From NCBI RefSeq assembly GCF_058153355.1, contig NZ_CM177019.1: a DNA stretch of 64,000 nucleotides, one strand, 5' to 3'. The translations under genes were made by a program, and so were the position numbers. The notes under the pieces are model-generated. The model saw nothing but the letters and a program-made list of their open reading frames with translations. It was not told the origin of the DNA and ran no database searches. Below are positions 1,869 through 25,511 of the stretch, piece after piece. The number at the start of each line of letters is the position of its first letter. Position 1 is the first letter of the stretch.

Positions 1869-2975
<1,107 letters not shown>

Positions 2976-3012
2976 TTATGCAAGTTGCCGGAGGTGACCT
3001 CCGGCTCTGTTT

Positions 3013-3291
<279 letters not shown>

Positions 3292-20708: not shown

Positions 20709-21863
20709 TTACTTCAGACCGGCAGCTTCACGCAGCAGCTGCGCTTTGTCGGTTTTTTCCCACGGGAAATGTTCACGACCAAAGTGACCGTATGCTGCGG
20801 TTTCTTTGTAGATCGGGTGCAGCAGATCCAGCATCTGAATCAGACCGTATGGACGCAGGTCAAAGAACTCACGTACCAGCAGAGTCAGTTGTTCAGAAGG
20901 CACTTTCTCGGTACCGAAAGTTTCCACCATGATGGAGGTCGGTTCAGCCACGCCGATTGCGTAGGAAACCTGAATTTCACAACGATCGGCCAGGCCAGCC
21001 GCAACGATGTTTTTCGCGACATAACGTGCTGCGTACGCTGCGGAACGGTCCACTTTTGATGGATCTTTACCAGAGAACGCACCGCCACCGTGACGTGCCA
21101 TGCCGCCGTAGGTATCAACGATAATTTTACGACCAGTCAGACCGCAGTCACCCATCGGGCCGCCAATAACAAAACGTCCGGTCGGGTTGATGAAGAACTT
21201 GGTTGCGGAAGTCAGCCATTCTGCGGGCAGAATCGGCTTGATGATCTCTTCCATTACCGCTTCTTGCAGCGATTTCTGGTCGATCTCTTCAGAGTGCTGG
21301 GTGGAAAGTACTACAGCATCGATGCCAACGATTTTGCCGTCGTCATACTGGAAAGTCACCTGGCTTTTCGCGTCCGGGCGCAGCCACGGCAGAGTGCCGT
21401 TTTTACGTACTTCAGCCTGACGCTGAACCAGACGGTGTGCATAGGTGATAGGTGCTGGCATCAGCACGTCGGTTTCATTGGTTGCGTAGCCAAACATCAG
21501 ACCCTGGTCGCCCGCGCCCTGTTCCAGCGGATCGGCACGATCAACGCCCTGGTTGATGTCAGGAGATTGTTTGCCGATAGCGCTCAGGACCGCACAGGAG
21601 TTAGCGTCAAAGCCCATGTCGGAATGTACATAGCCAATTTCGCGAACGGTGTTACGGGTGATCTCTTCGATGTCTACCCAGGCGCTGGTGGTGATTTCAC
21701 CGCCAACTAAAACCATGCCGGTTTTTACGTAGGTTTCGCAAGCAACACGTGCTTTCGGATCCTGTTCGAGGATCGCGTCTAAAACGGCATCAGAGATTTG
21801 GTCAGCAATTTTGTCAGGATGCCCTTCAGAGACGGACTCGGACGTAAAAAGGTGTTTTGCCAT
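20709..21863 (-). CDS. metK: S-adenosylmethionine synthetase
   Basis: 384 aa from [41 protein letters not shown]. Confidence 0.95.
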
Positions 21864-21903
21864 ATTTAATATCACCTAAAGAGAATTTGGTTAGCTCAAA
21901 CTG

Positions 21904-22170
21904 TTGTGTGGATTTTCTGTGGTAGCGGATCCTACCACGACTCTGCAGGTTAAAAACACTGGCAGTCTGAGTGTTAATCGGTATGGATGGATTAACATCT
22001 GGATGGCTATTTTAGGTCAGTTCTTCACCCAATTTCCACTTTTTTTTGAATCGTGTCTCATTCTGTTAAAAACGTGGCTGGAAATTTTTCCTGACAATGC
22101 TGGCATTCTGCGTATTTATCTTTTGCAATTTTCTGCCATTGTGGGGTATAAAACGCGGCGCGCGGCTTAA
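21904..22170 (+). CDS. Small hypothetical ORF in the metK–speA intergenic region (K-12 yqgD/yqgC-type; identity uncertain)
   Basis: 88-aa ORF only; no recognisable domain. Confidence 0.3.
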
Positions 22171-22517
22171 ATAAAAAGCACACGACGTTTCTTTCGTGTT
22201 GCCACTTCCAGCCGGGTTGAAATCAGAGTTTTGGCTTGTGGGTTCGTCTTAACAGGCGGCCGTGGAGGTGATACGAAATAATGAACCGTTGTCTGCTGCT
22301 TAACCTGTCACACCGTTCTGGTGTAGATTCGTTCCCCGCACTCTGCATCTCTGCTTTGCATACCTGCCGATGTTATACCCATCTCGGCGCTTCTCAGGAT
22401 TCAAGAGCTGGTTACAGTTACTGAGGACTGAACAAGGGCGCTCTTGTAAAAACAAGAGTTTTCTCGTGGTTTCGCCGAACTGTCACACTTACGTTCGGTT
22501 ATGTGTTTAATAATGTT

Positions 22518-22649
22518 ATGAAAAAGAAACCGGTTGCGCAGTCGGAGCGTCAGCATACTTTGCTGGAAAATCCGTGTGCTTATGGGTTGTTATCGCAGTC
22601 CCAGGCTGCGATAGTCGTTAACTGTTTTACACTTAATAAAATAATTTGA
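22518..22649 (+). CDS. yqgB: Small protein YqgB, upstream ORF ending 8 nt before speA
   Basis: 43 aa [43 protein letters not shown]. Confidence 0.6.
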
Positions 22650-22657
22650 GGTTCGCT

Positions 22658-24634
22658 ATGTCTGACGACATGTCTATGGGTTTGCCTTCGTCAGCGGGCG
22701 AACACGGTGTACTACGCTCCATGCAGGAGGTTGCAATGAGCTCCCAGGAAGCCAGCAAGATGCTGCGTACTTACAATATTGCCTGGTGGGGCAATAACTA
22801 TTATGACGTTAACGAGCTGGGCCACATTAGCGTGTGCCCGGACCCGGACGTCCCGGAAGCTCGCGTCGATCTCGCGCAGTTAGTGAAAACTCGTGAAGCA
22901 CAGGGGCAGCGTCTGCCTGCACTGTTCTGTTTCCCACAGATCCTGCAGCACCGTTTGCGTTCCATTAACGCCGCGTTCAAACGTGCGCGGGAATCCTACG
23001 GCTATAACGGCGATTACTTCCTCGTTTACCCGATCAAAGTTAACCAGCACCGCCGCGTGATTGAATCCCTGATTCATTCAGGCGAACCGCTGGGCCTGGA
23101 AGCCGGTTCCAAAGCTGAGTTGATGGCGGTACTGGCGCATGCTGGCATGACCCGTAGCGTCATCGTCTGCAATGGTTATAAAGACCGCGAATATATCCGC
23201 CTGGCATTAATTGGCGAGAAGATGGGCCATAAGGTCTATCTGGTCATTGAGAAGATGTCAGAAATCGCCATTGTGCTGGATGAAGCAGAACGTCTGAATG
23301 TCGTTCCTCGTCTGGGCGTGCGCGCGCGTCTGGCGTCTCAAGGTTCTGGCAAATGGCAGTCTTCTGGCGGGGAAAAATCGAAGTTCGGCCTGGCGGCGAC
23401 TCAGGTACTGCAACTGGTTGAAACCCTGCGTGAAGCCGGACGTCTCGACAGCCTGCAACTGCTGCACTTTCACCTCGGTTCGCAGATGGCGAATATTCGC
23501 GATATCGCCACGGGCGTTCGTGAATCCGCGCGTTTCTATGTGGAACTGCACAAGCTGGGCGTCAATATTCAGTGCTTTGATGTCGGCGGCGGTCTGGGTG
23601 TGGACTATGAAGGTACTCGTTCGCAGTCCGACTGTTCAGTGAATTACGGCCTCAATGAATACGCCAACAACATCATTTGGGCGATTGGCGATGCGTGTGA
23701 AGAAAATGGTCTGCCGCATCCGACAGTAATCACCGAATCAGGTCGTGCGGTGACTGCGCATCACACCGTGCTGGTGTCGAATATCATCGGCGTGGAACGT
23801 AACGAATACACGGTGCCGACCGCGCCAGCAGAAGACGCACCGCGCGCGCTGCAAAGCATGTGGGAAACCTGGCAGGAGATGCACGAACCGGGAACTCGCC
23901 GTTCTCTGCGTGAATGGTTACACGACAGCCAGATGGATCTGCACGACATTCATATCGGCTATTCTTCAGGCACTTACAACCTGCAAGAACGCGCGTGGGC
24001 TGAGCAGCTTTATCTGAGCATGTGTCACGAAGTGCAAAAGCAGCTGGATCCGCAAAACCGCGCACATCGCCCGATTATCGACGAATTGCAGGAACGTATG
24101 GCGGACAAAATGTACGTCAACTTCTCGCTGTTCCAGTCGATGCCGGACGCATGGGGGATCGACCAGTTGTTCCCGGTTTTGCCGCTGGAAGGGCTGAATC
24201 AAGTTCCGGAGCGGCGCGCCGTGCTGCTGGATATTACCTGTGACTCTGACGGTGCCATCGACCACTATATTGATGGTGATGGTATTGCCACAACAATGCC
24301 TATGCCGGAGTACGATCCAGAGAATCCGCCGATGCTCGGTTTCTTTATGGTCGGCGCATATCAGGAGATCCTCGGTAACATGCACAACCTGTTTGGTGAT
24401 ACCGAAGCGGTTGATGTGTTCGTCTTCCCTGACGGCAGCGTAGAAGTGGAACTGTCTGACGAAGGCGATACCGTGGCGGACATGCTGCAATATGTACAGC
24501 TCGATCCGAAAACGCTGTTAACCCAGTTCCGTGATCAAGTGAAGAAAACCGATCTTGATGCTGAACTGCAACAACAGTTCCTGGAAGAGTTCGAGGCAGG
24601 TTTGTACGGTTATACCTATCTTGAAGATGAATAA
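22658..24634 (+). CDS. speA: Biosynthetic arginine decarboxylase
   Basis: 658 aa from [45 protein letters not shown]. Confidence 0.95.
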
Positions 24635-24779
24635 TTAAGATTATTCCGCTATCGGGTCGATTTATTTACGTAAATCGGCCCGCTTTCTTTTTATATATTC
24701 TTAAAAATAATTTAGCTGCTTTCCTTATTGAATAATCTCCCTACAATCGCTGCATTAATTAAATGCAGAGGGAACGGTT

Positions 24780-25511
24780 ATGAAAAAATGGAAAGTACGT
24801 AGCGCGTTGGTGGCATTAGTCGTGCTGCTGGCCGGTTGTTCCAGTAATGCGCAGTATAATAGCAGTGCATCGGGCAATGTCGGCACCGCCTGGGGTGGGG
24901 ATGTGCACTCAACGGTTCAGGGCGTATCTGCTGAACGAGCCTGGCGCGATCCGGCAGAGATGATCGTTATTAGTTATTCGACTAATGTTCCTTCCGGCTA
25001 CGACCGCGTTTATAGCATTCGTATTAACGAACTTGAATATGCTATTCGCGATGGTAATTTTAATTCTCTACCTATTACGCGGGTTTATAATTCATCAGGT
25101 AAAGAACTACGCTATATAGTCCATGCCAGAGTAGGAATGAATTACCAATTATATGTCCGCAATTACAGTCGTAACACCAACTACGAGATCGTTGCGACAG
25201 TTGATGGCCTGGATGTTCTCAATGGTAAACAAGGTTCCCTGAATAACAACGGCTATATTGTGAATGCCGGGGATTCGTTGGCGATTAAAGGATTCCGCAA
25301 AGATAAACATACCGAAGCGGCTTTTCAGTTCGCCAACGTTGCTGATTCCTACGCAGCCAATTCGGCGCAAGGCGATGTGCGTAATACCGGTGTAATCGGC
25401 TTTGCCGCCTTTGAATTACAAGGCCCGGCGCAAAACGCGCTGCCACCGTGCTCTGGACAAGCGTTTCCGGCGGACAACAATGGCTATGCGCCGCCACCGT
25501 GTCGGAAATAG
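24780..25511 (+). CDS. Predicted lipoprotein of unknown function, between speA and speB (not present at this position in K-12 as far as I recall)
   Basis: 243 aa; signal peptide + lipobox MKKWKVRSALVALVVLLAGC; RBS gaggga upstream; two C-terminal Cys. Confidence 0.6.
   Translation: MKKWKVRSALVALVVLLAGCSSNAQYNSSASGNVGTAWGGDVHSTVQGVSAERAWRDPAEMIVISYSTNVPSGYDRVYSIRINELEYAIRDGNFNSLPITRVYNSSGKELRYIVHARVGMNYQLYVRNYSRNTNYEIVATVDGLDVLNGKQGSLNNNGYIVNAGDSLAIKGFRKDKHTEAAFQFANVADSYAANSAQGDVRNTGVIGFAAFELQGPAQNALPPCSGQAFPADNNGYAPPPCRK

Follow-up and report, generated by a model that had tools for sequence, protein, structure and literature searches.

In the rpmI-rplT operon of Escherichia coli (L35-L20), base pairing between the downstream initiation region and a sequence within the upstream cistron is melted by translating ribosomes, as worked out by the Springer laboratory in the 1990s. 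Here we present evidence that a comparable arrangement probably exists between yqgB, a short open reading frame (ORF), and speA, the gene for biosynthetic arginine decarboxylase, in a 64,000-nucleotide (nt) stretch of DNA from contig NZ_CM177019.1 (assembly GCF_058153355.1; hereafter ‘the window’, whose coordinates are used throughout). The arginine route to putrescine begins with SpeA, and the older E. coli literature describes repression of speA by putrescine and spermidine. To our knowledge, this polyamine feedback has never been explained, and the same is true of the reason for the existence of two SpeA isoforms. Hobbs, Astarita and Storz (2010; reference 31 of PMC13159126) are said to have found that a yqgB deletion is acid-sensitive. 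The source of the window is an E. coli chromosome, and its positions 22100-22900 are matched in 5425 of 5426 complete E. coli genomes with 95-99.8% identity.

The gene yqgB is already annotated and has already been proposed to be an upstream ORF (uORF); our contribution is comparative and structural. Adams et al. (2021; PMC7815308) placed yqgB-speA among validated small-protein genes that resemble regulatory uORFs, together with SpeFL-speF and MdtU-mdtJI, on the basis of an RNA 3′ end located no more than 200 nt downstream. The same authors reported Rho-dependent premature termination for speA with read-through in a rhoR66S mutant, found that the effect is kept in a fusion carrying only the speA 5′ untranslated region (UTR), included yqgB in that 5′ UTR such that yqgB and speA share one transcript, and cited Hemm et al. 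(2008) for detection of tagged YqgB protein. Translation of speA is known to begin both at the annotated start, yielding SpeA-74, and internally at Met-27, yielding SpeA-70 (Meydan et al., 2019). The Met-27 start is documented by Ribo-RET and an N-terminal peptide (Meydan et al., 2019), and further by INRI-seq and N-terminomics. In INRI-seq data the yqgB start codon is used in vitro, with no in vivo signal reported. In Salmonella, deletion of yqgB lowers speA and speB mRNA and the decarboxylase level, polyamines rescue the mutant, and the 2026 paper that reports these results describes no complementation. Full-text searches of the accessible literature returned no paper that dissects the speA leader. 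A sigma-54 site that Bonocora et al. tied to yqgB was set aside as irrelevant, as it is located in endA, ~5 kb away.

Database names treat YqgB as a functional protein. RefSeq calls the matching ORF of both the best-matching strain and K-12 yqgB, ‘acid stress response protein YqgB’, and places it between yqgG and speA (K-12 b2939, 3085920-3086051). The window ORF encodes a member of this small-protein family, with no structural difference from it: it lies in the same place, directly 5′ of speA on the same strand, and its full-length profile scores exceed the curated cut-offs both for Pfam PF11036 (‘virulence promoting factor’; 105.2 bits against a cut-off of 24, E = 1.4e-30, residues 1-43) and for NCBIfam NF033844 (‘acid stress response protein YqgB’; 88.8 bits against a cut-off of 35, E = 1.6e-25, end to end). 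Only 3 of the 43 residues differ from YqgB of K-12. The evolutionary pattern described below, however, gives no support to the protein function that the family names imply.

The elements at the junction of the two genes are as follows.

22518..22649, plus strand: yqgB, 43 codons, from ATG (22518-22520) to TGA (22647-22649).
22647..22660, plus strand: junction TGAGGTTCGCTATG, essentially invariant, comprising the yqgB stop codon TGA (22647-22649), the Shine-Dalgarno (SD) sequence GAGG (22648-22651) and the speA primary start ATG (22658-22660).
22658..24634, plus strand: speA, biosynthetic arginine decarboxylase, 658 amino acids from the primary start (NCBIfam NF003763 and TIGR01273, RefSeq).
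22725..22738, plus strand: internal start of speA, with AGGAGG (22725-22730) and ATG 22736 (Met-27), which yields the shorter isoform and lies outside the predicted structure (from the sequence and published start mapping).

The SD of speA overlaps the yqgB stop codon (UGAGG), and only the 8 nt GGTTCGCT (22650-22657) separate that stop from the speA ATG at 22658. This places the upstream stop within a few nt of the downstream start, as is typical of coupled gene pairs. The yqgB ORF itself has no recognizable SD. A first-pass annotation had described exactly this 43-codon ORF ending 8 nt before speA, and its coordinates are borne out by the sequence. It was also right to treat the two as separate ORFs, as evident by their different frames, by the TAA TAA (22634-22639) that closes the speA frame upstream, and by the separate RefSeq gene entries; the SpeA N-terminus (MSDD...) that it called conserved is present in 80 of 80 loci. 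Its statement that a mechanical ORF list had fused yqgB to speA was mistaken, as the list merely takes TTG 22646 as the start of speA, four codons (MRFA) early, and begins the yqgB frame at GTG 22503 (48 amino acids). Its suggestion that the arrangement is compatible with translational coupling or uORF control is supported, given that the stop near the speA ATG, the in-frame insertions and deletions (indels) and the predicted sequestration of the start all favor a cis role. The arrangement itself is observed, and from it we infer the coupling.

A 43-codon ORF is by itself uninformative because there are 71 ORFs of at least 20 amino acids in 4 kb of this region. The signal for a real yqgB ORF is conservation, not length. 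Among 80 Enterobacteriaceae speA loci, 79 include enough upstream DNA to be used for yqgB, and an ATG-started homologue is open in every one of these 79, with the ATG invariant. The stop codon is a TGA 8 nt before the speA ATG in 57 loci, and in the other 22 it is the TGA at speA positions +6 to +8 inside ATGTCTGAC (last base +8). Thus, without exception, the ORF stops at one of two places, 8 nt ahead of the speA ATG or at the TGA within ATGTCTGA. A gain or loss of 1 nt in the run of T that precedes GAGG switches between the two stop positions, and this has happened repeatedly within genera. The other two frames over yqgB are open in 0 and 4 of the 79 loci, a composition-shuffled sequence stays open ~7% of the time, and no stop-creating substitution was seen among 495 inferred events where ~10.8 were expected.

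The length of yqgB varies from 38 to 91 codons. All eight indels observed are multiples of 3 nt (+6, +21, +51, +60, +117, +126, +129 and -15), and therefore translation still reaches the speA junction. All of them fall in the loop between two short strands, GUNGU and ACACU, of the structure presented below. The last 4-9 residues of YqgB are variable, and there are two stop positions. In three loci (L029, L056 and L072) a repeat of ~117-129 nt is inserted in yqgB upstream of locus position 3001, and the ORF, now 87-91 codons long, remains open to the speA start. On the basis of the ERIC primer sequences, we take these three largest insertions to be an ERIC-like repeat. At the 5′ end, an in-frame GTG is present 15 nt upstream of the yqgB ATG in 64 of 79 loci. 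A YqgB-SpeA fusion by frameshifting was considered and rejected, as TAA TAA closes the speA frame, no slippery heptamer is evident and the uORF is in the speA frame in no locus.

In a collection of 5.8 billion proteins, the named hits to the YqgB family are confined to Enterobacteriaceae, save two records that are likely mislabelled. Eight loci of other Enterobacterales were used to look for the uORF outside this family.

Serratia: ATG start, 47 codons open to +8.
Rahnella: ATG start, 47 codons open to +8.
Mixta: ATG start, 46 codons open to +8.
Pectobacterium: GTG start, 52 codons open to +8.
Dickeya: GTG start, 52 codons open to +8.
Erwinia: no ATG, 50 codons open to +8.
Yersinia (two species): no clear start, last 24-35 codons of the uORF frame open to +8.

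In all eight loci the frame runs into the TGA at +6 to +8, and among their peptides that of Serratia alone scores above the Pfam cut-off. The ‘+8’ stop position looks ancestral, and the one at ‘-8’ in E. coli looks derived. A joint loss of the uORF and the start hairpin in Yersinia was considered and is unsupported, as the start region there is still structured, only differently.

The substitution pattern of yqgB is not that of a coding sequence. Changes per site, counted on a neighbor-joining tree of 60 taxa, amount to 3.86, 4.0 and 3.93 for codon positions 1, 2 and 3 of yqgB, which reveals no codon periodicity, versus 0.58, 0.15 and 9.3 for speA. Fourfold-degenerate speA sites underwent 12.2 changes on average, and none of 111 was invariant. 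In yqgB, there are blocks with zero change at all three codon positions (e.g. GGG TTG TTA TCG, GCG ATA and TGT TTT ACA), and between these invariant blocks lie variable segments with 10-14 changes per site at all three positions, approximately the neutral rate; ~40% of the codons change at this roughly neutral rate. Ten differences separate the window from K-12 over 600 nt, and six of these fall within the 132 nt of yqgB, where they change three residues. Therefore, the variable segments turn over fast even within E. coli. The few yqgB sites that vary only at the third position are unpaired or G.U-tolerant positions of the RNA model, and this accounts for the apparent wobble-only sites that might otherwise have been read as selection on the peptide, which we rejected. 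Because there is no codon periodicity and because the blocks are invariant also at synonymous sites, selection in yqgB appears to act on a set of nucleotide blocks and on keeping the frame open as far as the speA start, rather than on the amino-acid sequence.

These blocks correspond to predicted RNA structures, which were derived from folding and conservation and, for the 5′ domain and the long-range helices, from RNAalifold consensus folding (64 sequences).

22528..22613, plus strand: 5′ domain inside yqgB, with P1 formed by AACC (22528-22531) and GGUU (22585-22588) and extended by 22538-22540 with 22577-22579.
Within yqgB, plus strand: hairpins of the 5′ domain, namely A (22550-22554 with 22562-22566) and B (UAUCGC 22591-22596 with GCGAUA 22608-22613).
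22614..22633, plus strand: 5′ strands of the long-range helices, GU(A/G/C)GU (22614-22618; codons 33-34) and ACACU (22629-22633), in yqgB codons 33-39.
22651..22703, plus strand: hairpin predicted to sequester the speA primary start, GUUCGCU-A-UG-U-CUGACGA (22651-22668) with UCGUCAG-CN-GGCGAAC (22688-22703), with a variable loop.
22706..22715, plus strand: 3′ strands of the long-range helices, GGUGU (22706-22710) and ACUAC (22711-22715), at speA +49 to +58.

The 5′ two-thirds of yqgB (22526-22612) folds with a predicted free energy of -38 kcal/mol (z = -4.1; none of 200 shuffled sequences was as stable). Its P1 extension carries compensatory A-U to G-C changes in 14 sequences, corresponding to 18 cells of the alignment versus 6.6 +/- 2.0 in shuffles. 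The hairpin at the speA start is predicted to yield -21.2 kcal/mol here and -20.0 kcal/mol on average over the 79 loci. The arms of this hairpin do not vary, synonymous sites of speA included, and where one strand alone has changed, a G.U pair is mostly still possible. Two long-range pairings, GUNGU with ACUAC and ACACU with GGUGU, are predicted to join the 3′ third of yqgB to the region just beyond this hairpin. In the consensus structure 98.7% of cells are paired, versus 28-49% when the partners are slid by 1-3 columns. The sequence GGTGTACTAC is present in 71 of 79 loci. A search of Rfam 15 with positions 21000-25500 on both strands gave no match at E <= 1.

Two independent observations hint at the long-range helices. 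GGUGU is changed only in Raoultella, where ACACU is deleted, and in L072, where ACACU is altered. In the two Raoultella loci (L061 and L063; locus ~2960-3060) the deletion leaves a yqgB of 38 codons, and GGCGU is found at speA +49 to +53. In addition, the Rho-associated RNA 3′ end mapped by Term-seq at K-12 3085854 (Adams et al., 2021) corresponds to speA +58, or position 22715 of the window, which is the last nt of the predicted long-range helix. This end point fits the helices because exonucleases are expected to trim transcripts back to stable structure. As a separate observation, the 26-codon N-terminal extension that distinguishes long SpeA (22658-22735) largely coincides with the 3′ half of the predicted regulatory structure; SpeA residues 5-10, which are encoded by the hairpin loop, vary freely, and codons 11-20 are invariant even at synonymous sites.

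From the arrangement, the conservation, the non-coding type of evolution, the predicted structures and the match with the published 3′ end, we infer formation of the structures in vivo, coupling between the two genes and an effect on the isoform ratio. Specifically, we lean, by a little more than an even chance, towards the view that yqgB is a cis-acting translated uORF whose ribosomes unfold the primary start of speA and hand over to it. In this model, the primary start (GAGG, AUG 22658) would be locked in the conserved stem-loop, and pairing of the 3′ third of yqgB (GUNGU...ACACU) with speA +49 to +58 would enclose the whole initiation region. Independent initiation under a hairpin of -21 kcal/mol should be inefficient, judging from established work on structure at initiation sites. 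A ribosome translating yqgB would melt the 5′ strands of the long-range helices and, on reaching UGA in its A site, also most of the base of the start hairpin, and would then terminate over the SD of speA, with the AUG 8 nt away. In loci of the other class, found in about a quarter of species, the ribosome would read the whole 5′ arm and stop 5 nt past the AUG. Either way the AUG would be left exposed for re-initiation or for fresh binding of a 30S subunit, and synthesis of SpeA-74 would depend on translation of yqgB. The Met-27 start, which has a strong AGGAGG and is 10 nt clear of the structure, should be independent of yqgB, so that only the long isoform would be governed by coupling. Ribosomes on the yqgB stretch would also limit Rho-dependent premature termination in the speA leader.

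Several observations weigh against this coupling model. The literature consulted holds no experiment that demonstrates a dependence of speA translation on yqgB translation. Moreover, yqgB lacks an SD and a very stable predicted structure sets in 10 nt downstream of its AUG, such that the ORF may be poorly translated. Ribo-RET in vivo reveals a peak at the speA primary start and none at yqgB; therefore, either some speA initiation is independent of yqgB or use of yqgB is restricted to other conditions. The phenotype of the yqgB deletion is ambiguous, as it does not separate effects in cis from effects in trans. On the structural side, the GUNGU:ACUAC helix is interrupted by a C.U mismatch in E. 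coli, and the sequences of the -21 kcal/mol start hairpin and both long-range helices are conserved with pairs that never vary, so that covariation speaks neither for nor against the predicted closure of the start. Serratia, Rahnella and Yersinia fold the speA start region differently, so this structure is not conserved across the order, and in both Yersinia species the uORF frame is open over no more than its last 24-35 codons.

If yqgB translation does act in cis, it might do so without any hand-over to speA. Translation of yqgB and yqgG could chiefly shield the leader from Rho, with the stop position simply closing the ribosome-free gap and no need for re-initiation. This account is possible, if clearly not the one we would bet on. 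It draws on the Rho-dependent 3′ end, the read-through in the rhoR66S mutant and the retention of the effect in the fusion limited to the 5′ UTR, as well as on a leader of 498 nt with a C > G stretch and an ORF that is open right up to the speA start. The C > G stretch, however, lies in yqgG and not in yqgB, and shielding alone leaves unexplained both the -21 kcal/mol start hairpin and the complementarity of yqgB to speA +49 to +58. Shielding and coupling are not mutually exclusive, and both may operate. The opposite sign of regulation, in which ribosomes terminating on UGAGG occlude the SD and AUG of speA and thereby lower initiation at the primary start, seems improbable to us. A terminating ribosome would indeed cover both elements, as the stop overlaps the SD and is 8 nt from the AUG, and a 2026 preprint describes ribosome-mediated occlusion by uORFs. 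But a start that is already closed by a stable hairpin is more likely to be activated by upstream translation, and deletion of yqgB lowered speA expression, although the deletion also removes RNA structure. Least probable of all, and very much so, is that the ORF is incidental and untranslated within a purely structured RNA or DNA regulatory element. Such an element would be conserved at the nucleotide level without codon periodicity and would have neither a Ribo-RET peak in vivo nor an SD, all of which is seen for yqgB. But it would not be expected to keep an invariant ATG and a frame open in 79 of 79 loci through near-neutral segments and insertions, with the other frames closed and all indels in frame; in addition, the start codon is recognized in vitro and yqgB is listed among experimentally validated small proteins (Adams et al., 2021).

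The remaining alternatives assign a role to the peptide. YqgB might be mainly a trans-acting small protein that is co-transcribed with speA, in which case the overlap of stop and SD would be ordinary operon compaction. This is rather unlikely, despite the names given by RefSeq, NCBIfam and Pfam, the binding of ranitidine by YqgB together with the pleiotropic phenotypes of the deletion (a 2026 paper in Adv Sci), the heat-shock response to YqgB overexpression, and conservation of the peptide blocks KKPVA, YGLLS and AIVVNCFTL. The same blocks are invariant at synonymous positions too, in a sequence without codon periodicity, which argues for constraint on the RNA, and the few wobble-only sites fall where the RNA model has no pair or tolerates G.U. 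The C-terminus is variable and takes insertions of 2 to 43 codons, including the ERIC-like repeat, and outside the family the ORF and the place where it ends are retained although the peptide is no longer recognizable. A cis effect on speA would predict the deletion phenotypes (reduced speA and speB expression, rescue by polyamines), and complementation is undescribed. Alternatively, yqgB might encode a metabolite-sensing arrest peptide of the SpeFL, MdtU or TnaC type, in which a polyamine, arginine or agmatine stalls the ribosome and speA is controlled via Rho or exposure of the ribosome-binding site. The precedents of speFL and mdtU in the same pathway, Rho-dependent termination in the speA leader and a conserved AIVVNCFTL block near the C-terminus all point this way. 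We nevertheless find it highly improbable, a shade more so than occlusion: arrest needs a fixed C-terminal geometry, and in YqgB the last 4-9 residues and the distance from block to stop vary (38-91 codons, two stops). Conservation of the block extends to synonymous sites and is explained by RNA pairing, and in an arrest-peptide screen overexpression of YqgB gave an aggregation-type heat-shock response rather than the cold-shock response typical of arrest.

The comparative and structural evidence thus yields a specific, testable coupling model and casts doubt on the protein-centered annotation. If coupling of the primary start only is correct, the ratio of SpeA isoforms would be the regulated output. 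The ‘acid stress’ and colistin-sensitivity phenotypes credited to the YqgB protein would then be cis effects on speA, and a recent proposal to target the YqgB protein with drugs would be touched likewise. The locus would also represent a clean case of a ‘small protein gene’ that is selected for being translated and not for its product.

The junction lies at the end of a long leader, which includes the following additional features.

22123..22152, plus strand: promoter-like sequence, with -35 TTGCAA (22123-22128), an 18-nt spacer and -10 TATAAA (22147-22152), in a block that is 90-100% conserved.
22160..22657, plus strand: speA mRNA leader, 498 nt, carrying yqgG and yqgB (from the clone primers of Adams et al.).
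22203..22270, plus strand: anti-SD CACUUCCA (22203-22210) predicted by RNAalifold to pair with the strong yqgG SD UGGAGGUG (22263-22270), enclosing a covarying hairpin.
22281..22424, plus strand: yqgG, the first leader ORF, 47 codons (RefSeq, Pfam PF23505).
22440..22474, plus strand: terminator-like hairpin GCUCUUGU-AAAA-ACAAGAGU followed by UUUUCUCGUGGUUUC, between yqgG and yqgB (consensus scan).
22513..22521, plus strand: two-codon mini-ORF ATG TTA TGA, whose stop overlaps the yqgB ATG; ATG-NNN-TGA is found at the same position in 65 of 79 loci.

The element at 22123..22152 would serve as the promoter of the long leader, with the transcript start taken as G22160. The speA 5′ UTR clone of Adams et al. 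(2021) begins at GCGCGGCTTAAATAAAAAGC, which corresponds to window positions 22160-22179, and therefore the leader is 498 nt long and carries both yqgG and yqgB. Across 79 Enterobacteriaceae sequences the leader includes blocks that are 90-100% conserved, and its fold z-score is -3.4. In the helix formed by the anti-SD and the yqgG SD, all eight pairs are kept in 74-76 of 76 distinct sequences, and the inner hairpin occurs with multiple pair types. The yqgG ORF has an ATG and an open frame in 78 of 78 loci and lacks codon periodicity, the same pattern as yqgB; its protein has been detected (Weaver et al., 2019). It is overlapped by the C > G stretch (GC skew -0.2 to -0.3 over 22280-22420), which resembles a Rho-loading region, and it ends 8-26 nt 5′ of the terminator-like hairpin. 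This hairpin exhibits U-A to C-G covariation in its stem and an invariant U-rich tail (z = -3.0), and may be an attenuator.

A more ambitious proposal is that the whole 498-nt leader is a multi-stage riboregulator of Enterobacteriaceae, and partly of other Enterobacterales, with a gated yqgG, a coupling yqgB, an isoform ratio set by a signal, and no relevance of either peptide. We regard this as tentative, and more apt to prove wrong than right. In an initial stage, the anti-SD helix would gate translation of yqgG and thereby both Rho loading and the terminator-like hairpin. In a subsequent stage, the SD-less yqgB, set beside its stable and partly covarying domain, would open the speA primary start, such that yqgB translation would set the ratio of long to short SpeA according to a signal, for example polyamines or acid.

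Two further candidate elements were considered. An antiterminator formed by CAAGAGC (22402-22408) and GCUCUUG (22440-22446) is plausible in E. coli but is not established across species and amounts to speculation. A proximal speA promoter within yqgB (TTAACT-16-AATAAT, 22618-22645) was rejected, as it would have its -10 element in a non-conserved segment and almost no leader left.

Some neighboring features were also recorded. Between metK and the speA leader promoter, positions 21960-22050 form a block that is 90-100% conserved and includes a minus-strand promoter-like site (22038-22009); this is presumably the promoter and 5′ UTR of metK. The annotated genes yqgC (22187-22402, minus strand) and yqgD (21919-22170) overlap the conserved leader and promoter, and yqgC was found to have neither ribosome density nor a tagged protein (Weaver et al.). 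Between speA and speB, positions 24780-25511 encode a hypothetical protein of 243 amino acids with a lipoprotein-like N-terminus and no Pfam match, which 3558 of 5426 complete E. coli genomes encode and K-12 lacks.

Among known systems, rpmI-rplT shares with yqgB-speA an upstream ORF that ends at the downstream start, a predicted sequestration of the SD and AUG, and the location of part of the sequestering strand inside the upstream ORF. It differs in that yqgB is a uORF with a seemingly dispensable peptide and speA has a second, structure-free internal start, and coupling at yqgB-speA is at present our proposal. SpeFL-speF and MdtU-mdtJI resemble yqgB-speA in belonging to the polyamine pathway of enterobacteria and in having a long leader with a uORF and a Rho-dependent 3′ end close to where the main gene begins. 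However, SpeFL and MdtU rely on a conserved C-terminal nascent peptide plus an effector, and their stop codons lie ~100 nt upstream of the main start, whereas yqgB has a variable length and C-terminus, lacks the conserved C-terminal peptide at a fixed distance to the stop that typifies arrest peptides, and has a stop that abuts the speA start. As in the trpL, hisL and pheL attenuators, the speA leader has a conserved hairpin with a U tract 8-26 nt beyond the end of a translated ORF, here yqgG. Unlike those attenuators, neither yqgB nor yqgG has an evident run of regulatory codons, YqgB includes a single Arg, and a consensus scan found no terminator-like site between yqgB and speA. In eukaryotes, uORFs connected with polyamines include the ‘MAGDIS’ uORF of S-adenosylmethionine decarboxylase and the conserved uORFs of plant arginine decarboxylase mRNAs. 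These operate in unrelated translation systems, share no homology with yqgB and use other mechanisms (peptide-dependent stalling, or re-initiation after scanning), but like yqgB they precede the coding region of an enzyme for polyamine biosynthesis.

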